From an archaeon (GTDB lineage Archaea; Nanobdellota; Nanobdellia; Pacearchaeales; GW2011-AR1), in assembly GCA_018651605.1 (NCBI GenBank), contig JABIDS010000009.1, positions 84,563 through 148,562 on the forward strand: a stretch of 64,000 bases of DNA, given 5' to 3'. Positions 9,154 through 63,726 of this stretch are shown here, piece by piece. Position 1 is the stretch's first letter; the number at the start of each line of letters is the position of its first letter. Under the pieces are notes generated by a model. The model did no database searches. It had not been told where the DNA came from and worked only from the letters and a program-made list of their open reading frames with translations. The position numbers were made by a program, and so were the translations under genes.

Positions 9154-9263
9154 TTTAGTACTCGTACAATTCTATATTAGGATTTTTTAATCCTGTAATC
9201 TGAAATTGTATAATAAGGTATCAAAAAAGAGGTTTTTAAAGTTTTTTGTTTGGGTTTTTGAGT

Positions 9264-9415
9264 TTTCTATCCCTGCGGAAAGCCGGTTTAGAGAATCTTC
9301 GATTCTCTAACTCTCTAACTCTCTTTGAGAGAGTTGGAGACTTCACACTTTCCCTTTCCTTCCCAGGTTTTGAAATCTTCTTAGGAATTTAATAGAGTAA
9401 GAGGTTTTCAGAGAA
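9264..9415 (+). repeat. mosaic intergenic repeat, module A copy with two nested hairpins
   Basis: ccctgcggaaagccgg...cacactttccctttccttcccaggttttgaaatcttcttagg aligns with 17715-17820. Extra hairpins lie at 9288-9310 and 9317-9335, inside the stem-1 loop. Confidence 0.8.
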
Positions 9416-9461
9416 TATTAAGTAAATAAAAGTTTATAAGGGACTAACTATCTGATAAATC

Positions 9462-15291: not shown

Positions 15292-16137
15292 ATGAGACAA
15301 AAACCTACAAACCATGAATCTTATTGGGGAGTTATAAGAAGAATTGTTGAAGAGTCTGATTTAGTTTTGGAAATATTGGATTCAAGATTAGTGGAGCTTT
15401 CGCGAAATGAGGAAGTTGAGGCGATTGTTGAAGAGATTGGTCGGCCTTTGATTTATGTTGTGAATAAATCTGATTTGGTTTCTAAAGAATCTTTGAATAA
15501 ACAAGTTGAGAAATTGAAAGAGAAAGGGAGTGTTGTTTTTATTTCTGCTAAGAGTCCTAAGAGTACGAAGGTTTTGCTTTATGCGATTAAAAAGGCTTTT
15601 AAAAAATATGGTAAGAGGGAGATTGTTGAGCGTGGGAAGTTTGACCCTAAGCCTATTTATCGTGAGGCTAAGGGTGAGATTGTTGTTGGGATTTTGGGTT
15701 ATCCTAATGTTGGGAAGTCTTCTATAATTAATGCTCTTGCTCATAAGAAAAAAGTTAAGGTTAGTAAGAAATCCGGGACGACTCATGGTATTCATTGGGT
15801 TAAAGCTAGTGACGAGATTAAATTGATTGATAGTCCTGGAGTTATTCCTTTGAAGAAGGATGATGAAGTTCGTTATGGTTTGATTGGTGCTAAGGATACA
15901 GAGAGATTGAAGAATCCGGAGTTGGTTGTGCATGCGATTGTTGAATTGTTTTTGAAGAATAATGTTAGAGCTTTTGAGAAATTTTATAAGATTGAAGTTA
16001 AGGGTTTGGATGTTTATGAGATTATTGAGAAGATTGGTCTGCGGAAAAGTTATTTATTGAAGGGTGGAAAGATTGATGAGAATCGTGTTTTTTTGGATAT
16101 TATTCGGGATTGGCAACAGGGGCGGTTGGGGTTGTAG
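15292..16137 (+). CDS. circularly permuted ribosome-biogenesis GTPase (YlqF/RbgA/MMR-HSR1 type)
   Basis: Motif order is G4 (VVNKSDL), then G1 (GYPNVGKSS), then G3 (DSPG). Start moved to ATG 15292; the upstream part of the track ORF is hydrophobic junk overlapping the promoter. Confidence 0.8.
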   Translation: MRQKPTNHESYWGVIRRIVEESDLVLEILDSRLVELSRNEEVEAIVEEIGRPLIYVVNKSDLVSKESLNKQVEKLKEKGSVVFISAKSPKSTKVLLYAIKKAFKKYGKREIVERGKFDPKPIYREAKGEIVVGILGYPNVGKSSIINALAHKKKVKVSKKSGTTHGIHWVKASDEIKLIDSPGVIPLKKDDEVRYGLIGAKDTERLKNPELVVHAIVELFLKNNVRAFEKFYKIEVKGLDVYEIIEKIGLRKSYLLKGGKIDENRVFLDIIRDWQQGRLGL

Positions 16138-16170
16138 GGGTTTAAGGTTGGAGGTGTTAGGGTTTAGAAT

Positions 16171-16486
16171 GTTTCCTCCTCCAGCAGAGAGCCGGCTTAC
16201 GCCTTTCCCTCTCTGCCCGTTGCAGTTTTGGTAAGTTGTTAGAGGGTTTATTTTTTCAGATGAGTTTTCTTTGGTTGTTATGAGTGCGAAGTAGGTTTTG
16301 TAGAGAGTTTAAGATTTGGGTGATTCAGAGAATTAAAAATTCTCTGACTTAGAAAAATAAGCTATAAGCCCTATTATTTTTCTAATTTTAGTATTTAGCG
16401 AAGCACCCTGACGAAGTCGGGTGCGAAAGCGATATAGGATAAATGAGTAGAGCGAATGTATCTACACGAGCGGAGCGAGTGTTTAG
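16171..16486 (+). repeat. mosaic intergenic repeat, full-length copy (modules A + linker + B)
   Basis: Aligns by eye with 53125-53379, 58123-58415 and 63441-63695. Stem 1 is at 16184-16216, the nested palindrome at 16325-16347 and the bulged-T hairpin at 16403-16424. Confidence 0.85.
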
Positions 16487-16508
16487 TTGTTTAATTTTAT
16501 AGTTATAA

Positions 16509-17182: not shown

Positions 17183-17694
17183 AATTATTGGTGGAGGAAT
17201 TTTTTGGGAAAACTTTTGAATATATTGATGGGATGAATATTTTTGTGATAAGATGGATTGTTAAATTTATTTTTTATTTGGTTTTTGTTTTGATCGGAGG
17301 TTATGTTTTGATTTCTGTTTTTAGGAAGGATTTTTTGCCTATTGTTGTTATTGTTGGTCTTCTGATTTTGGGAGAGGTTGCACATTATTTGAGGAAGAGT
17401 CGTGAGAAGGTTATGGTGTCGAGAGTTACTGAGAAGAATAGTTTGGATGAGAAGGTGAAGAATGGTGGGTTGTTGGTTAAGGGGAAGAATAAAGGGCTTG
17501 GGTTTAATAAGGTGAAGAATAAAAGTTTGGTTAAGAAAAAGGTGGTTAGTGGGAGTGGTGTTAAAGGTGTTGGTGGGAAGAAGGTTGGGAAGAAAAAGGT
17601 TAAAAGTAAAATTTTGAAGAAGAAAGTAATTAAGAATAAGAATTTGTTGAAGGTTAATAAGGCGAAGAATGAGGATATGTTGAAGGGTGTTTGA
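17179..17694 (+). CDS. membrane protein with lysine-rich C-terminal tail
   Basis: ATGA overlap with the HAD gene. Two TM helices are followed by a KKKV/GKK low-complexity tail. Confidence 0.55.
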   Translation: MKLLVEEFFGKTFEYIDGMNIFVIRWIVKFIFYLVFVLIGGYVLISVFRKDFLPIVVIVGLLILGEVAHYLRKSREKVMVSRVTEKNSLDEKVKNGGLLVKGKNKGLGFNKVKNKSLVKKKVVSGSGVKGVGGKKVGKKKVKSKILKKKVIKNKNLLKVNKAKNEDMLKGV

Positions 17695-17714
17695 TTGACA
17701 TTTTAGTTGGTGAA

Positions 17715-17820
17715 CTTCCTCCTCCACGGAAAGCCGTGTTTCGCACTTTCCCTTTCCTTCCGAGGTTTTGAAATCTTCTTAGGGATTTAATTTATGGAGG
17801 GGAGTTTTCTTTTTTGTTGT
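17715..17820 (+). repeat. mosaic intergenic repeat, module A only
   Basis: cttcctcctccacggaaagccgtgtttcgcactttccctttccttccgaggttttgaaatcttcttaggg...ggagttttctttttt. Confidence 0.8.
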
Positions 17821-17846
17821 ATTTGGTTTATTAGATTTTAGAATTA

Positions 17847-19307
17847 TTAATCATATCTAGATTTTCTTTCTCGTCTTGCTTTGTTTCTTCCAACTGGGTT
17901 TTTGTTGTCAGATCTTCTGTTGTCTCTGTTTCCGTAACTTCCACCTCTTGAGCCACCTGAACTTCTTCTGTCACCAGTTCTACCATAACTGCTTCCTCTG
18001 CTGTCTCTTCCCCCGTAACTTCCACCCCTACCGCTATCTCTTGAAGAACCACGCCCACCATATCCACCCCTAGAACTTCCACCTCTTGAATAACCTCCCC
18101 TTCTATCTCCTCCTCTTGAACCTGAACCTCTATCTCCTATATTGTGTCTTCTTGCATATCTTTGTCCTTTTGTTTCTGGCATCCACCTTATTCTTACTCT
18201 TGGGACGTAGGGAGTTTCTACATGTTCTATCTTGACTCCTTCTATGTCTAAGACATTTCTAAAATTATCATAATCTCGACTTGAGACAACATTAATTACT
18301 TTTCCTTCTTTTCCTGCTCTTGCTGTTCTTCCTATTCTGTGGATATATTCATTTGCGTCGTTTGGTGTGTCGTAATTATAAATATGACTAACTCCCTTTA
18401 TATCTAGTCCTCTTGCTGCGACATCTGTGCAAACTAAAACATGAACTTCTTTTGAATGGAATTGTTCTAAGATTCGGCTTCTTTTTTCTTGGCTGAATCC
18501 TCCGTGGATTGGTAATGATTCTATTCCCATGAACTTAAGATTGTTTGAGACAAAATCTACATTGCTTCGAGTGTTACAGAAAACCATTACTAATTTTGCT
18601 TTTTCTATTTCTAATAAATGTTTTAGTAAAGAGTATTTTAGATTGTCGTCTACATCGTAATAAATTTGTTTTAATTTGCTTGGGTCTACATGTGATTCTG
18701 CTGAGACTTCAATTGGGTTGTTCATGTAATCTTGAGCAAGTAATACTATATCTTGAGAGATTGTTGCTGAGAATAAAAGGGTTTGTCGTTTTTTTGGGCA
18801 GTTGTTGATTATTGTTTTGACGTCGTCTATGAAACCCATGTCTAACATTCTGTCTGCTTCATCTAGAACTAATGTTTTTATATTTGATAAGTCAATTGTT
18901 CCTCTTTCTATATGGTCTAGTATTCTTCCAGGTGTTCCTACAATAATGTCTGCGTATTCTAATTGTTTTATTTGAGGAATTATTGAAACTCCTCCATAAA
19001 TTGCAGAAATACTTAATGGATCGTGTTTTGAGAAATTGTCTAGTGCGTCTGCTATTTGATCTGCTAATTCTCTTGTAGGTGTTAGAACTAATGCTTGAAC
19101 TCCATAATCTTTTTTAGTGTTTTGTAAAATTCCTGAACCAAATGCTAGTGTTTTTCCTGAACCTGTTGATGCTCCAGCTATAACATCTTTTCCTTCTATA
19201 ACTAATTTAATAGTTTTTTCCTGTATTTCGCTAGGTTTTTCAAATCCGTGTTCTTCAAGAGATTTTAAGATTGGATCTGAAATTCCTAATTCTTTAAATG
19301 CTTGCAT
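17847..19307 (-). CDS. DEAD-box RNA helicase with RGG/RS-rich C-terminal tail
   Basis: AGASTGSGKTLAF, VLDEADRM, SAT and HRIGRTARAG motifs. The last ~100 aa are an Arg/Gly/Ser repeat. Confidence 0.9.
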   Translation of the reverse strand: MQAFKELGISDPILKSLEEHGFEKPSEIQEKTIKLVIEGKDVIAGASTGSGKTLAFGSGILQNTKKDYGVQALVLTPTRELADQIADALDNFSKHDPLSISAIYGGVSIIPQIKQLEYADIIVGTPGRILDHIERGTIDLSNIKTLVLDEADRMLDMGFIDDVKTIINNCPKKRQTLLFSATISQDIVLLAQDYMNNPIEVSAESHVDPSKLKQIYYDVDDNLKYSLLKHLLEIEKAKLVMVFCNTRSNVDFVSNNLKFMGIESLPIHGGFSQEKRSRILEQFHSKEVHVLVCTDVAARGLDIKGVSHIYNYDTPNDANEYIHRIGRTARAGKEGKVINVVSSRDYDNFRNVLDIEGVKIEHVETPYVPRVRIRWMPETKGQRYARRHNIGDRGSGSRGGDRRGGYSRGGSSRGGYGGRGSSRDSGRGGSYGGRDSRGSSYGRTGDRRSSGGSRGGSYGNRDNRRSDNKNPVGRNKARRERKSRYD

Positions 19308-29784: not shown

Positions 29785-32700
29785 TTATCTACGTTTTTTA
29801 GTGATTTTCCACATTTTCTTTTTTGAAATTATTTTAAATATTAGAATAATTAAAAGTATTATTATCGCTGTTATGCCTGGGGTCCATCTTGTTGGTTTAG
29901 AAGTTTTTTCTTCAGTTAATTTTTCAACTTCTTCTTCATATCCTACTATTGCAAAATAACTAAAGCCAGGGGTTATTGTTTCATAATATGCATAATCACT
30001 ATCTTTATTCAAAAAATTTGTTTCAAGTTTTTCCCACTCTGATGAATATCTTAGTATTTTAACTGATTCTGGTTTAAATTTTTCATCAAACCACGATGAT
30101 GAAATTTTGAATTCGATTATTGCTTTGCTTATTTCTTTGTTGTCAATATTTTTTGTGTTGATAATTAAGTATTGGTATATTTTTCCTTTTGGTTTTGGCA
30201 TATCTAATAAGTTATTTATTGAAGAAACCTCTATTCTACTATTAATTTTTGAATTCTTTAATTTTAAAGTAATTTTATTAATGGCAATTTTTTCTTTGTC
30301 AATATTTAGATCATATTTTTTATTTGCTTCCATTTTACTCCAAACATTAATTATTGTTTCAATTTTGTTTGACTGTGTTGTTGAGATGGATCCTCCTGAG
30401 CTCGAGGTTGTTGTTGGCGAGATACTTTGTTCAATATTAGAACCATAGTAAATTGTAACACTTTCAGATATTGTTGAATTGTCCTTTGTTTGAACATATA
30501 TTTCGCTTGTGTTCTCTGCTCTTATTTTTTTGCTTAGTCTATGTGATGCTCCAGTCCTAACTCTAAAAGTTCCGTGGTATTCGTTTGTGTTTATTCCTGT
30601 TTCGTATGCTTTTATTGGAACTGCAATTGAGGAATCTGTACTATTTATGAGTACGGTAATAATGTCTTTTATTCCTGGGTCTCCTCCTGTTGCAGCAATA
30701 TTAACATATAATGGATCATTAATATTAACATAAACTATTCCTGAATTGTCCGAACCTGTATAATCCGATTCATCAGTTATTTTTATTGTGGAGATTGTTT
30801 TTGCAACAAAATCTTCTCCTGTACCATAGATTAGATAGATTCTTCCAGCATCATTTGCCCCGTAGTCATTATTAGTTGAGTCAATAACAAAGTCTTCATA
30901 CCCATCATTATTAATATCTCCTAGGCCATCCATTTCATAGGCTCCATCATCCTCATATTCTCCAATCCATGAAGCATTTGCATTGCTTATACTTGTTCTC
31001 ATTGAAAGTCCTGTTGGGCTTCCATAAACTAATTGCACTTCTCCAACTGATCCTAAGTCTGGCCTATAATTACCCATAAATAAATCATCCCACCCATCAC
31101 CATTTACATCACCAATAAATGAGTTTGATGACAGAGAATCACCACTGCGTTCGCCATACCATGAAGCATTTGCCGAACTAACATTATAGTTTCCAGCGTA
31201 AGATATTGGACTGCCGAATATTAAATATGTTTGACCTGCTCCAGATGCACCATAATCATTACTGCCACTATAAAAAATAATGTCAGCAATCCCATCTCCA
31301 TTAATATCTCCTGAGGATGCACTCCTAGCCCAATCCCCATCTGCTTCACCATACCATGAAACACTAACATCACTAACATTTGTTCTCATAGAAAATCCAT
31401 TTGATGAACCATAAACTAGATATATTTGTCCAGAATCATAGATTCCCATTGGAGATGTGAGCAATAAATCATCGTATCCGTCGTTATTAATATCTCCTGC
31501 ATAACTTGTGCCATATCCCAACCAGTCAGAAGCTTTTGCGCCATACCAGGAGGCATTCACTTCACTTACATTATAGTTTCCAGCGTAAGATATTGGACTA
31601 CCTAATATTAAATATGTTTGACCTGCTGAGTCTCCACCATAATCATCTCTAAAATGGTCAATAACAAAGTCGTCATACCCATCTCCATTAAAATCTCCTA
31701 TTCCTTCTGCCAGTGTATTCTCACTACTTTCAATAGATTCACGACTCCAAGAGGCATTTGCAGTACTGACATTTATTCTTCCAGAAAATATAGTTTCTCT
31801 TCCGTATATTAAATTAGTTCTCCCTATCCCTTCTTTTGCTACTGATGTATATCCATATGAGGGAATTAATAGATCATCATAACCATCCCCATTTATATCC
31901 CCTGCATATGACGTGCCTCTTCCAAGATCATCTTTACGATAGGCACCATACCACGAAGCATTTGATTCATTTACATTCATTGTACCACTAAATGTGTTAG
32001 TATTCCCATAAAAGAGATATACACTTCCAGTGTCAGATCCTCCATAACTATTATCTTCAGAGTATAAAATAAAATCTGAGTAACCATCATTATTAATGTC
32101 TCCAACATAGCTCCCACCCTCTAAATTGTCTCCACTATTTTCTCCATACCAACTTGCATTTGCCCCACACAATAGAGACATTTCATCTTCAAAATCAGTC
32201 CTGCCCCCACAATAATATATGCTATAGTTTTCATCTCCAAAAGCACAATTCCCTCCAATATCGCAAAGATAATAATTCCAATAATTTTCTCCAAAAGAAC
32301 TAAGCTCTATAGTCATATTACTATTGTTTTTTGTTCCTGTAATTTCTGTTGTTGAGAAATTATATAGTCCTTCCCGATCCCAAACATAAAGAGTCGCATT
32401 CTTTAAGTCAATAGAGGTAAAAGGATTAGAACTTAAATTCGCAACGAAATATTGTGTAGCCTCATAAGTGTAATCTTCTCCATCTAGGGGAGATATTAGT
32501 TCTACCTCTAATTCATTTAATCTGTATATTGTAACATTTGTTTCTTGTGTTTGATTACTTTTGCTCATATTACTGGTTAGATTAACATAAGAATAAAAGT
32601 TAAAAGTATTAGAACCCGCTGTTGCATTTACCCAGAAGGTAACCACTTCACTTTCTCCTTCAGAAATTGAGATATTGTATGGATTAGTTGACATATTTGT

Positions 32701-33729
32701 ATAGAAAGGAATTGCCCCAGTAGTTGTATTAATGAGGCCCCCAACATCTATATATAAACTATAATCTTCAACCTCGTTATAATCAGGAGCATTACAAGCA
32801 AGTTCATTTTCACCATATTCTGCAACGAGTCTAAACATTGTCGGTCCTGGAGCCGCACCTACAGGAACTGTAATATTTTTAGAGATTACGGTTCCATCGG
32901 TAGCTGTTCCACCCATTTCGTATCTTTCAGTAGTCTCGCTAAATACTTGGTCCTGATTCCAATCAAAAAAAGCTACTACATAATCAGTATAACCGTCATC
33001 AACATACAATGTAACATTTAATTCATAAGTTGTACCAAGAGTTAATAAGGTTATATTACTTGTCGCATCCAGATATCCTTCATTATCTCCTGAAGTATAA
33101 TCTATTTCATTAAATACTACTCTATCAATATATTCACCATAAGAGGTGTCTCCGCCAGTATTACTGCAATAAGTACTAGCATTAACGTCTGAACCTACGC
33201 CTGTCAAGAGTGCTAGACTCACATTAACCTCTCCACAACTTCCAGTTAAACAAGTTACATTAATGGTATAATTAAAAAAGTTATTTTGACTAATATTAAT
33301 ATTGCTTGTGGGATAAATAATTTCTAATCCTATTGATGAAGTATTTGTTGTCAAACTATAAATTGCTGTTTGATTCCAATTGTTTGATGTGTCATTTGCA
33401 TACCATCTATAGCCGATTACAGTTCCCTCTGTTTCATTTAGTGTTTTTGTTAGGTTTGCCCAAGAAGGTGTTGTGCTAAATGCTGTCCAGGTATCATTAA
33501 TCCAACTTCCAGTATTATTAGTTGAAAAAATATATCCTCCTGTAGGGTGTAGTGCTGTTCCATCTGTCCAATAAGAATAAAATTTTGCTGTGGAGTTTGC
33601 CAAGGTGGTGTTTACTCCAAAAAGGGAATATGCTGGATCTGCGTTTACCATTATGGTGAGAAAGATTAGTGTGATTATAATTAATGTAAGTGCTAATGTA
33701 GTCTTATGATGTCTTGTGCCTCTTTTCAT
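29785..33729 (-). CDS. giant surface protein: signal/TM, sequon-rich region, GEVED-like domain, ~7 FG-GAP repeats, PGF-pre-PGF-like domain, C-terminal TM anchor
   Basis: Repeated GDINxDGYDD calcium-loop motifs; FDWNQDQVF (GEVED-like); PGFSYFAIVG followed by a TM helix and KKK; many N-x-S/T sequons. Confidence 0.85.
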   Translation of the reverse strand: MKRGTRHHKTTLALTLIIITLIFLTIMVNADPAYSLFGVNTTLANSTAKFYSYWTDGTALHPTGGYIFSTNNTGSWINDTWTAFSTTPSWANLTKTLNETEGTVIGYRWYANDTSNNWNQTAIYSLTTNTSSIGLEIIYPTSNINISQNNFFNYTINVTCLTGSCGEVNVSLALLTGVGSDVNASTYCSNTGGDTSYGEYIDRVVFNEIDYTSGDNEGYLDATSNITLLTLGTTYELNVTLYVDDGYTDYVVAFFDWNQDQVFSETTERYEMGGTATDGTVISKNITVPVGAAPGPTMFRLVAEYGENELACNAPDYNEVEDYSLYIDVGGLINTTTGAIPFYTNMSTNPYNISISEGESEVVTFWVNATAGSNTFNFYSYVNLTSNMSKSNQTQETNVTIYRLNELEVELISPLDGEDYTYEATQYFVANLSSNPFTSIDLKNATLYVWDREGLYNFSTTEITGTKNNSNMTIELSSFGENYWNYYLCDIGGNCAFGDENYSIYYCGGRTDFEDEMSLLCGANASWYGENSGDNLEGGSYVGDINNDGYSDFILYSEDNSYGGSDTGSVYLFYGNTNTFSGTMNVNESNASWYGAYRKDDLGRGTSYAGDINGDGYDDLLIPSYGYTSVAKEGIGRTNLIYGRETIFSGRINVSTANASWSRESIESSENTLAEGIGDFNGDGYDDFVIDHFRDDYGGDSAGQTYLILGSPISYAGNYNVSEVNASWYGAKASDWLGYGTSYAGDINNDGYDDLLLTSPMGIYDSGQIYLVYGSSNGFSMRTNVSDVSVSWYGEADGDWARSASSGDINGDGIADIIFYSGSNDYGASGAGQTYLIFGSPISYAGNYNVSSANASWYGERSGDSLSSNSFIGDVNGDGWDDLFMGNYRPDLGSVGEVQLVYGSPTGLSMRTSISNANASWIGEYEDDGAYEMDGLGDINNDGYEDFVIDSTNNDYGANDAGRIYLIYGTGEDFVAKTISTIKITDESDYTGSDNSGIVYVNINDPLYVNIAATGGDPGIKDIITVLINSTDSSIAVPIKAYETGINTNEYHGTFRVRTGASHRLSKKIRAENTSEIYVQTKDNSTISESVTIYYGSNIEQSISPTTTSSSGGSISTTQSNKIETIINVWSKMEANKKYDLNIDKEKIAINKITLKLKNSKINSRIEVSSINNLLDMPKPKGKIYQYLIINTKNIDNKEISKAIIEFKISSSWFDEKFKPESVKILRYSSEWEKLETNFLNKDSDYAYYETITPGFSYFAIVGYEEEVEKLTEEKTSKPTRWTPGITAIIILLIILIFKIISKKKMWKITKKRR

Positions 33730-35024: not shown

Positions 35025-35047
35025 AAAATAAAAATAAGTTAAAAGAA

Positions 35048-35296
35048 TTATTCGGCAGACTCTTCTGCTTTTTCTTCTTCTGGCGCTTCTTCAGTTGCTT
35101 CTGCTTCTTCAGCTGCAGGTTCTTCTGCTGCTTCTTCAGCTGCAGGTTCTTCTTCAGTTGCTTCTTCAGCTGCAGGTTCTTCTTCAGTTGCTTCTTCAGT
35201 TTCTTCTGCTGCTTCTTCAGCTGCAGGTTCTTCTTCAGTTGCTTCTTCAGCTTCTGCTTCAGGCGCTTCTTCTTGTGTTTTTTCTTCTTCTTCCAT
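35048..35296 (-). CDS. acidic tandem-repeat protein (82 aa)
   Basis: ATEEEPAAEE decapeptide repeats from a 30-nt DNA repeat. TATA-like ttttataaat lies about 30 nt upstream of the ATG on the minus strand. Confidence 0.5.
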   Translation of the reverse strand: MEEEEKTQEEAPEAEAEEATEEEPAAEEAAEETEEATEEEPAAEEATEEEPAAEEAAEEPAAEEAEATEEAPEEEKAEESAE

Positions 35297-35425
35297 TTTT
35301 TTTTAAGAACAAATTTAATTAATTTATAAAATAGGTTTTACTTTTTAAACCTTTGTGAAATAGATTTACTCTTTTGCAGAGTGACAGATTGGTAGGTTGG
35401 GTTGTTAGAAGGTTTTGGTTGAGAA

Positions 35426-53041: not shown

Positions 53042-53124
53042 TTGATGAAAACATAATGAAGATATATAAATATTTTTGTGGGTGGTTGTATATTATAGGG
53101 TTATTGGGTTGAAAAATTATTGAA

Positions 53125-53379
53125 TTTCCGCCCCTGCGAAAAGCCGGTTTCACCTTTTCCTTTTCGCGCCTTTGCAGTCTTGAAATTTTGTTAGAGGGTT
53201 ACTTTTTGCAGATGAGAAGATTAGGTTTTGTCATGAATGCTAAAAATGTTTTTCATAGCTTCTGATATTTAGAAGATTTCAAAAAAATTAGAAATTTGGG
53301 TTGGACTTGTCCTCCCAAATTGATATAAAATAAGATGAGCGGAGCGAATGAATCTACGCGAGCGATAGCAAGCATTTAG
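53125..53379 (+). repeat. mosaic intergenic repeat, full-length copy
   Basis: Stem 1 at 53136-53167 (gcgaaaag/cttttcgc); bulged-T hairpin at 53294-53320; 3' block gatataaaataagatgagcggagcgaatgaatctacgcgagcgatagcaagcatttag. Confidence 0.85.
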
Positions 53380-53406
53380 CTAATGAGGATAATTATTAAA
53401 AATAAG

Positions 53407-58103: not shown

Positions 58104-58122
58104 AGGTTTGGTTGATTGAGGG

Positions 58123-58415
58123 GTTTCCGCCACCGCGAAAATCCGTTCCTTACGTCACTTTCCCATTTTCTTACCGAGTCTTGAAATGTTGAGGAAGGGT
58201 TTATTTTTGAAGATGAGTTTTCTTTTGATTGTTATGAGAACTTAGTTTTTTACGAGTGATTAAGATTTAGGAGATTTCAGTATTTAGCGAAGCGGACTGG
58301 CGCAAGCCGTCCGCGAGAGCGATATAGAATAAGATGAGCGGAGCGAATGAAACTTGTGGAAGAGGGATATAAGCGAACGAAGTGAGTTATCTACGCGAGC
58401 GAAGCGAGCGTTTAG
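58123..58415 (+). repeat. mosaic intergenic repeat, full-length copy (with a 37-nt insertion in module B)
   Basis: Bulged-T hairpin with a GCAA loop at 58292-58314. The segment acttgtggaagagggatataagcgaacgaagtgagtt is inserted between gagcgaatgaa and atctacgcgagcg. Confidence 0.85.
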
Positions 58416-58431
58416 GTATTTTTATTTTTTA

Positions 58432-63175: not shown

Positions 63176-63440
63176 TTTGGTCTCTTACTTTTTTAAAGTA
63201 GTTAATTTTTTGGGATGGGTTTAAATATTAGATTGTCTCGTGGTTTTTATGTTATATTCAGATAATGAATCTTTGGATAAGATGTTTGAAAAGGGTGATG
63301 ATGGTGATGCGGATGATGAAGATGAGGTGGATGGGGATAGTTAGGGGATGAGGGATTGGAGTGATTCTTAATAGAAAGTTGATATGTGATTTAAAGTTTT
63401 CGGTTTGATTTCAAGAGGCTCGGTTTAAGGGGGTTTGGAT

Positions 63441-63695
63441 TTTCCTCCACCGCAGAAAGCCGTGCTCGCACTTTCCCTTTCTGCCCTTAGTAATCTTGAA
63501 ATCTTGTTAGAGAGTTATTTTATTCAGAGGAGTTTTCTTTTGGTTGTTATGAGGGTTAAAAAGTTTTGTATAAATATTAAGACTTAGAAGATTTCAGTAT
63601 TTTAGTGAAGCAGACTGGACTTGTCCGTCTGCGAGAACGACATAAAATAAGTGAGTGGAGCGAATGAATCTACGCGAGCGATAGCGAGTGTTGAG
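63441..63695 (+). repeat. mosaic intergenic repeat, full-length copy
   Basis: Stem 1 at 63452-63484 (gcagaaag/ctttctgc); bulged-T hairpin with a CTTG loop at 63610-63632. Confidence 0.85.
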
Positions 63696-63726
63696 ATAGT
63701 TTTTTTTATAATTTCTAGAAATCTTT

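Follow-up and report, generated by a model that had tools for sequence, protein, structure and literature searches.

The window analysed here is a 64-kb stretch of archaeal DNA (64,000 nucleotides of contig JABIDS010000009.1), and we describe in it an interspersed, hairpin-rich, non-coding repeat, with particular attention to the first of its hairpins, stem 1. The window is gene-dense chromosomal DNA of about 32% G+C with housekeeping genes on either strand, among them genes for DNA ligase, glucokinase, ribosomal protein S10, a thermosome, phosphoribosyl pyrophosphate (PRPP) synthetase, and an ABC transporter. DEAD, SNF2, and UvrD-type helicases and two tRNA genes are also encoded, and the 64 kb hold no gene for a transposase, integrase, or reverse transcriptase. 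The thermosome's next relatives (74-87% identical) carry Pacearchaeota or Nanoarchaeota annotations, which makes the host a Pacearchaeota-type DPANN archaeon. The repeat is modular and occurs either as module A alone (~180 nt) or as modules A and B together (~300-365 nt). When the whole window was searched with nhmmer and a covariance model, with filters off, exactly six copies were returned, all on the + strand; four are A+B and two A only, and together they occupy ~2.7% of the sequence. A structured repeat of ~300 nt that takes up ~3% of 64 kb is unexpected, because DPANN genomes are among the smallest and most streamlined.

Stem 1 sits ~45 nt in from the left edge of the repeat. In the copy c63452, the octamer at 63452-63459 (GCAGAAAG) pairs with that at 63477-63484 (CTTTCTGC). 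Equally perfect 8-bp helices are formed on the + strand by c16184 (16184-16191, GCAGAGAG, with 16209-16216, CTCTCTGC) and c53136 (53136-53143, GCGAAAAG, with 53160-53167, CTTTTCGC). The remaining copies, likewise on the + strand, have shorter versions: c58137 (58135-58142 with 58165-58172) is reduced to 6 bp and one G.T, while c17728 (17726-17733 with 17752-17759) and c9277 (9275-9282 with 9354-9361) keep 6-bp cores at 17728-17733/17752-17757 and 9277-9282/9354-9359, respectively. Perfect 8-bp helices of differing sequence are therefore present in three of the six window copies, and the other three have 6-7 pairs. A preliminary description of this DNA had listed three octamer and three hexamer pairs, and all of its stem coordinates and sequences are correct.

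Pairing of this kind might arise from chance complementarity of low-complexity GAAAG/CTTTC runs in an AT-rich genome. The arms are indeed of low complexity, a second CTTTCC right upstream of the 3′ arm makes complementarity cheap, and the folding z-scores of single copies are modest (−0.9 to −2.9). Covariation among the copies refutes this explanation. When the 3′ arms of the six window copies were reassigned, 43 Watson-Crick pairs were reached in just 2 of 720 permutations, and these two are the true assignment and a trivial swap of two identical arms. We also scored covariation on an ungapped alignment of the six copies from which the apical loops had been taken out, with shuffles and a 3′ partner slid by 1-3 columns as controls. 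Over stem 1 and a short inner helix above it, 90.9% of cells pair, and changes on both sides are seen in 7 of 11 pairs (five of eight in stem 1, two of three in the inner helix). None of 500 shuffles matched the observed value, and the slid controls were 50-63% paired. With eight copies, 92% of cells are paired, which again 0 of 500 shuffles attained; taking all the alignments together, slid controls stayed at 50-64%.

Three further copies came from outside the window. They were found by translating the stop-free + frame of module A and searching it against protein databases; they were not chosen by stem sequence and provide an independent test of stem 1. Two belong to one related genome, R2: L022a, a full copy, has 8 pairs (ACAAAAAG/CTTTTTGT), and L022b, module A only, has 7 (TCGGAAAG/CTTTCCGC). 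The third, L024, lies on a European Nucleotide Archive (ENA) contig, is module A only, and has 8 pairs (ACGAAAAT/ATTTTCGT). Copies in which the two octamers vary independently would speak against the helix, and the three new copies all pair. The original observation is not only confirmed but strengthened. The nine copies together contain five distinct perfect octamer pairs; of their 72 stem 1 positions, 66 are Watson-Crick, 2 are G.T, none is A.C, and 4 are other mismatches. We give accidental complementarity next to no credence. The compensated 8-bp helix that the preliminary description proposed is borne out by permutation, shuffle, and slid controls across six to nine copies: the stem 1 helix is real and is maintained by compensatory substitutions. 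Since it is kept by compensatory change, it belongs to a functional folded single strand, RNA or DNA.

The same stop-free frame raises the possibility that module A encodes a small hydrophobic protein of ~40-66 aa, with the helix as a coding by-product. The frame runs for 40-52 codons through module A in four window copies, and it has been annotated in public metagenomes: P0121 (66 aa; L022 1770-1970) and P0122 (47 aa; L024 1104-1247) are "hypothetical proteins" whose open reading frames (ORFs) were called across module A, stem 1 included. However, the frame lacks a start codon in c53136, is shifted by an indel in c58137, and is stopped in c17728 and c9277. Overall we found no conserved ORF, the sole long stop-free frame being broken in three of the six window copies. 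Substitutions between c63452 and c53136, compared by eye, show no synonymous bias, and exhaustive searches of 1.8 and 5.8 billion proteins give just P0121 and P0122. Coding also does not yield position-specific compensation in arms 16-17 nt apart. The broken frame and the compensatory changes largely refute the coding hypothesis, which we regard as very improbable. P0121 and P0122 are almost certainly annotation artefacts, at least two spurious "hypothetical proteins" that the repeat has placed in public databases.

Energy calculations agree with the helix at the level of single copies. Stem 1 appears in the minimum-energy RNA fold of five of the six window copies and in the minimum-energy single-stranded DNA (ssDNA) fold of all six copies tested (three from the window, three external). 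Full-length minimum-energy folds disagree from copy to copy, and RNAalifold put the 3′ arm out of register in MAFFT alignments of module A and did not recover stem 1.

The segment enclosed by stem 1 had been described as a conserved loop of 16-17 nt. This holds for its two ends, a 5′ CCG and a 3′ C-TTT-(C/T)-C, which alone are invariant; the rest is not one conserved loop but an internal loop, a covarying mini-helix, and a variable apex. Directly above the 8-bp stem is an asymmetric 2x5 internal loop, in which 5′-CC faces 5′-YTTTYC. A 3-bp inner helix follows, itself covarying (GTG/CAC, GGC/GCC, GGT/ACC), and is capped by an apical loop that varies and measures 3-5 nt in most copies. In c63452, CC at 63460-63461 lies opposite TTTCC at 63472-63476, the inner helix joins 63462-63464 to 63469-63471, and the apical loop is CTCG. 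The apex of c58137 has 10 nt, an extra 5 nt. That of c9277 contains two whole extra hairpins (~9287-9308 and ~9309-9343), amounting to ~60 added bases, so the two insertions reported earlier for this copy are indeed present, at 9287-9343. The window contains the palindrome AGAGAAT-N5-ATTCTCT just twice, the chance expectation being 0.01: once in the stem 1 apex of c9277 (9290-9308) and once in the linker between modules A and B of c16184 (16327-16345). It may be an independent, very small hairpin cassette with the element as its target.

The final six bases of this segment, CTTT(C/T)C, are a tandem duplicate of the start of the 3′ arm (63470-63484 and equivalents). Both motifs track position 4 of the 5′ arm in eight of nine copies, G going with C+C and A with T+T. 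The two motifs are directly adjacent and therefore cannot pair with the 5′ arm simultaneously. The duplication could represent an alternative helix, that is, a two-state switch, or the footprint of slippage or duplication.

Where the preliminary description had treated the helix as an element standing alone, stem 1 turns out to be one of at least three covarying hairpins in a modular, strand-biased interspersed repeat. Besides stem 1, module A (~180 nt) has three conserved blocks, TTGAAAT, GAGTTTTCTTT, and TTGTTATGAG. Module B (~120 nt) comprises a hairpin P3, a GA-rich block that is nearly invariant (GATGAGCGGAGCGAATGAATCT), a terminal hairpin P4, and a tail. P3 is built on 2 bp at its base and a GAA/GAGA internal loop, over which stand a 6-bp stem, a bulged T, and a 3-bp top with a CUUG, GCAA, or GAA loop. 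Covariation among copies is seen in all three of its paired parts, the basal 2 bp included. In c63452 it spans 63605..63638 (+) and reads GT[GAA]GCAGAC-T-GGA-CTTG-TCC-GTCTGC[GAGA]AC. P4 has the plan ACGC-GA-GC-loop-GC-GA-GYGT, with tandem G.A, followed by a conserved T(T/G)AG tail; in c63452 it lies at 63672..63691 (+) as ACGC-GA-GC-GATA-GC-GA-GTGT. Within the module B helices, 95% of cells pair and both sides change in 6 of 17 pairs, a result attained by 0 of 500 shuffles. P4 passes through a C-G / C.A / T-A series across copies, T-A being found in the R2 copy where c53136 has C.A. Read on the + strand, the wobbles are G.T pairs, two of them in stem 1 and further ones in P4, and C.A occurs once, also in P4; this weakly favours the + strand as the folding strand. 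Stem 1 shares no sequence with P3 or P4 but resembles them in its G-C-rich foot and stem-bulge-stem layout.

Two other pairings were considered and set aside. A long-range helix of TGAAATCTT with AAGATTTCA (63497-63505 with 63591-63599) is good in c63452, c53136, and c17728; we dropped it because it shows non-compensating changes in L022a and is missing in c16184. Pairing of upstream G-runs with a CCNCC block 5′ of stem 1 was unconvincing because the + strand is G-rich throughout.

The copies differ in neighbourhood and in added parts. The ~304-nt copy c63452 (A+B, 63406..63709, +; nhmmer 1.8e-87) has the 5′ end of the ABC-transporter gene (−) on one side and, on the other, the 3′ end of another gene on the − strand. 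Just 5′ of it, at 63249-63344 (+), is a 31-aa ORF, and a 33-aa ORF occupies the equivalent spot beside the ABC-transporter gene in two relatives, R1 and R2; this may be a real conserved micro-gene. The A+B copy c53136 (53088..53393, +; P3 at 53293-53321, P4 ending at 53375) is flanked by two − strand genes. A third A+B copy, c58137 (58104..58431, +; P3 at 58287-58320, P4 ending at 58411), occupies all of the space from the MscS stop codon to that of the convergent UvrD-like helicase gene and has a 38-nt insertion in its GA-rich block. The last of the A+B copies, c16184 (16136..16500, +; P3 at 16398-16430, P4 ending at 16482), carries two additional hairpins (~16323-16388) between its modules. 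The A-only copy c17728 (17679..17861, +) lies between convergent genes, with its left edge overlapping the stop codon of the upstream gene; c9277, also A only (9230..9440, +), is set between two divergent genes, that for S10 and one for a 150-aa protein. As for the edges of the repeat, at least 18-31 nt separate the left one from the foot of stem 1, as bounded by upstream stops in c58137, c17728, and L022b, and in L022a no more than 7 nt separate the right one from the foot of P4.

The intergenic settings are convergent in four cases, tandem in four, and divergent in one, and the orientation of the repeat is independent of its neighbours. This constancy across convergent, tandem, and divergent regions rules out cis-regulation of particular genes. 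The preliminary description had suggested a protein- or ligand-binding element. A riboswitch-like ligand role is unlikely because the copies ignore the orientation of neighbouring genes; protein recognition survives as the most plausible role.

The repeat has spread through one small Pacearchaeota-like clade of DPANN archaea, and its presence differs between related genomes at syntenic sites. R1 has a thermosome 84% identical to that of the window, comes from the same Joint Genome Institute (JGI) sample, 3300072015, and conserves the gene order. Its MscS-UvrD gap measures ~2-3 nt, versus 328 nt in the window, all of it element. At the c53136 site the window has a gap of 365 nt, compared with ~147 nt for R1 and 77 nt for L013, a relative with 87% identity. 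Neither a profile nor the covariance model found a copy in ~62 kb of DNA from five relatives (76-87% thermosome identity), and in a sixth genome the gene spacing is too tight for a copy at three syntenic sites. R2, in which MscS is 84% and UvrD 83% identical at the amino-acid level, has two copies at the MscS-UvrD locus. The count at this locus is accordingly one in the window, none in R1, and two in R2. The R2 copies have the same orientation and flank an extra gene of 183 aa (L022 1186-1737), which has no Pfam match and no homologue in the window; this gene could have been gained beside the repeats or lost by recombination between them. Gaps of ~300-420 nt in JGI gene tables, a size that fits further copies, are present in R2 upstream of a 463-aa gene and downstream of the 33-aa ORF, and in the window genome 8-10 kb to the left. 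Contigs from the same strain (99.9-100% identical) contain every copy that they span and show no insertion polymorphism.

Divergence among copies is considerable. Module A copies are 50-73% identical pairwise and do not cluster by genome or locus. The best pair between genomes, L022a and c63452, is 79% identical over 282 nt, versus 62-64% at four-fold degenerate sites of the flanking genes, where 50% is expected by chance. Either purifying selection or movement between co-resident lineages after their split would produce this difference. L022a is nearer to c63452 than to c58137, and orthology of c58137 with the R2 copies is not established.

These rates bear on the possibility that the repeat is a structured RNA family functioning in place, as a 3′ untranslated region or read-through product, a small RNA, or an omegaRNA-like scaffold; the stem 1 helix would then present the CC/UUUCC internal loop to a protein or another RNA. 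The copies are old (50-73% identity) and still retain perfect helices, changing more slowly than four-fold sites. Several helices have compensatory changes and there are conserved unpaired blocks. P4 has tandem G.A flanked by G-C, P3 has the GAA/GAGA internal loop, and CUUG and GCAA (GNRA) tetraloops are present, all of which would suit an RNA. The apex with its inserted hairpins behaves like a variable RNA stem, the wobbles on the + strand are G.T with one C.A only, and five of nine copies begin at or just past the stop codon of a co-oriented gene.

Transcription is where an RNA meets difficulties. Genes of the window have a TTTAWAWA box whose median position is −29 relative to the start codon, an arrangement of the leaderless archaeal kind, and we built a position weight matrix from 44 window genes. 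Scanned with it, none of the nine copies has a TATA-like + strand site, inside it or upstream, that exceeds the 25th percentile of gene promoters. We rejected an internal promoter in the A-B linker, since only c63452 has a TATA-like run there. The lack of a comparable + strand promoter box rules out an independently transcribed RNA gene family, and read-through would not serve c53136, c63452, L022a, and c9277 (four of nine), which have no co-oriented upstream gene. Furthermore, the repeat is missing from the syntenic sites of R1 and the ~62 kb of five relatives, and one copy per 10 kb is unusually dense for an RNA gene family. Rfam 15 at gathering thresholds yields just two tRNAs in the window; two copies searched at E<=10, against families that included the IS605-associated ones and HEARO, gave noise alone (best 14.8 bits versus a cutoff of 55). 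An RNA acting in place is the main alternative to our preferred reading, one that we take seriously and yet hold to be rather unlikely.

Other searches were equally unproductive. By blastn, plasmid and phage records contained no match to the repeat. A scan of GTDB genomes with a module A pattern gave four chance bacterial matches and nothing else, a scan of JGI metagenomes with a module B pattern gave two unrelated GC-rich matches and no copy, and three scans of viral contigs returned nothing or chance matches in GC-rich phage genes.

Another reading places the function in duplex DNA: the repeat as a double-stranded or cruciform site for a chromosomal protein of replication, segregation, chromatin, or recombination, with KOPS- or Chi-like polarity. 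All six window copies share one orientation, there are conserved blocks outside the helices, and there is neither promoter nor ORF, as such a site would have it. But a duplex site needs conserved sequence, not compensatory change that preserves intrastrand pairing alone. A housekeeping site would also be expected in close relatives, and R1 and others are without it; a length of 300 nt, optional modules, and inserted hairpins are unlike known polar motifs. We consider a duplex site a distinctly poor candidate.

A mobile element processed as ssDNA fits best, because it brings together selected intrastrand helices, lineage variability, a single orientation, and the lack of promoter and ORF. We suggest, with a probability of roughly 45%, that the repeat is a non-autonomous, hairpin-dependent mobile element resembling the palindrome-associated transposable elements (PATEs) derived from IS200/IS605 transposons; its termini and its transposase would be putative ones. 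Archaeal PATEs have no inverted terminal repeats and no target duplications and are too short to encode a transposase (PMC3119063). Their palindromes lie near the termini, at a greater distance for the 5′ palindrome than for the 3′; they are far more divergent than canonical transposons, and small repeats have inserted into the near-terminal palindromes (PMC3119063). PATEs often encode omegaRNAs that act in trans (PMC10055086).

According to this model, the repeat would be a transposase-free element, mobile now or until recently, whose + strand is processed in folded, single-stranded form. At the left end, stem 1 would be the hairpin recognised for its structure, including the CC/YTTTYC internal loop and the mini-helix, and the module B hairpins would have the same role at the right end. 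An enzyme of the HUH/Y1 type would act on the element in trans, as in PATEs derived from IS200/IS605. Selection for transposition competence would keep the helix paired while the sequence drifts. In c58137, c17728, and c9277 the helix is weakened, and these copies would be relics in decay. The most plausible role of stem 1 is to be recognised by a protein, whether a transposase or some other factor that binds single strands. It is speculation that the interior and module B additionally encode an omegaRNA-like transposon-associated RNA, which would explain how well both are conserved.

Several findings weigh against a PATE-like mobile element. No Y1/HUH transposase, TnpB, or other transposase is present in the window or in gene tables up to 10 kb beyond (window genome and R2). 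The exact termini are undefined: we found no flanking direct repeats of more than 6 nt, with the termini not mapped to the base. We found no conserved 4-6 nt target 5′ of the element either, a TTAG-type motif being inconsistently placed, and a WAG trinucleotide that recurs weakly, 31-46 nt upstream of stem 1, was picked post hoc. The left and right hairpins are dissimilar, unlike those of IS608 and many PATEs. Copies of module A only, without the presumed right end, make up four of nine; they are as common as full copies and occupy other loci. Active transposition is not demonstrated, because no near-identical (recent) pair occurs among the copies compared. Long-term retention with intact helices could reflect a function in place. 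The strand bias itself rests on six of six copies, for a two-sided p of ~0.03. An element derived from IS200/IS605 would be expected to follow the direction of replication in its orientation, with its top strand on the lagging-strand template.

Function in place could also take a less familiar form. The repeat may be neither junk nor selfish DNA but a functional single-stranded element, not described before, of the ultra-small DPANN archaea, retained under purifying selection at ~3% genome cost. It would be either a new transposon-derived RNA family, guide or scaffold in the omegaRNA manner, whose partner nuclease or recombinase is encoded elsewhere, or a two-state hairpin switch. What suggests a switch is that the 5′ arm can pair with either tandem CTTT(C/T)C motif. 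We think this improbable, though it deserves to be kept in view.

Each outcome has consequences. If the repeat is mobile, it would point to an unrecognised single-strand transposition system in Pacearchaeota, perhaps linked to RNA-guided TnpB-type nucleases; if it is an RNA working in place, it would be a new multi-copy structured RNA class. Irrespective of function, it is a likely cause of contig breaks in these metagenome-assembled genomes.

A few features of the window lie apart from the repeat. GC skew is very strong and tracks gene strand, from +0.3 to +0.58 over + genes and about −0.1 to −0.28 over − genes, coding strands being G-rich and C-poor. The cumulative skew climbs to 5.2, and this net positive drift may be the mark of a leading strand. 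An ORF of 1314 aa on the − strand (29785-33729) contains seven tandem units of ~195 nt (~65 aa) at roughly 30880-32180 and is probably a repeat-domain surface protein. Downstream of an M10-peptidase/CARDB gene and upstream of tRNA-Tyr, 35038-35307 is a degenerate tandem array with a period of 9-18 nt, rich in TTCTTC/AGC, which could be a low-complexity coding tail or an intergenic microsatellite.

How does the repeat compare with known systems? Modular mosaic repeats are familiar from bacteria, in the BOX elements of Streptococcus pneumoniae (boxA-boxB-boxC) and the bacterial interspersed mosaic elements (BIMEs) and repetitive extragenic palindromes (REPs) of enterobacteria. Like these, the repeat is intergenic and multi-copy, has optional modules and hairpins but no ORF, and often lies at gene 3′ ends. 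REPs are ~35-nt palindromes associated with RAYT transposases and, as BIMEs, usually found in both orientations, and BOX modules are bacterial and more uniform in sequence. The repeat is not known to resemble any of them in sequence, keeps a single orientation, and has far more diverged copies.

[quoted passage not shown] However, MITEs need DDE-related terminal inverted repeats and usually have target-site duplications, and neither is seen here. The longest terminal inverted match is 4-6 nt, against a mean of ~5 nt in shuffles. A classical MITE was rejected for this lack of terminal inverted repeats and of flanking direct repeats above chance. The attC sites of integrons, which archaea including DPANN are reported to have, are single-stranded hairpins whose structure is kept while the sequence drifts. 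All sites share one orientation and are recognised as a folded strand, which the repeat recalls. Unlike attC sites, its copies have housekeeping genes of either strand between them, whose synteny persists in relatives lacking the element, and an attC array was rejected as there is no cassette array and no integrase nearby. The omegaRNA or reRNA of TnpB and IscB systems offers a further parallel, a structured region of ~150-250 nt at the right end that is more conserved than the left; the repeat differs in having no promoter and no Rfam match, and no TnpB or IscB is known for the genome.

PATEs are the nearest match, as represented by HqIRS of Haloquadratum walsbyi and the PATE-like elements of Geobacillus stearothermophilus. 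There are differences: in the window and the flanking gene tables the repeat has no IS200/IS605 transposon with matching ends and no TnpA or TnpB, it has no conserved target oligonucleotide, its left and right hairpins are unlike, A-only copies are frequent, and its host is a DPANN archaeon rather than a haloarchaeon or a Firmicute. The likenesses are nonetheless extensive. Both are short and non-coding, without terminal inverted repeats, and no target duplication was detected in the repeat, whose termini are approximate. Both have hairpins near the two ends, the 5′ one further in, together with heterogeneous copies and inserted palindromes. Both seem to follow a strand-specific, single-strand logic, with a right half that perhaps codes for RNA. 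Membership among the PATEs is unproven; the repeat is a new family of interspersed, modular, hairpin-rich repeats of Pacearchaeota-like archaea whose closest known counterparts are PATEs.

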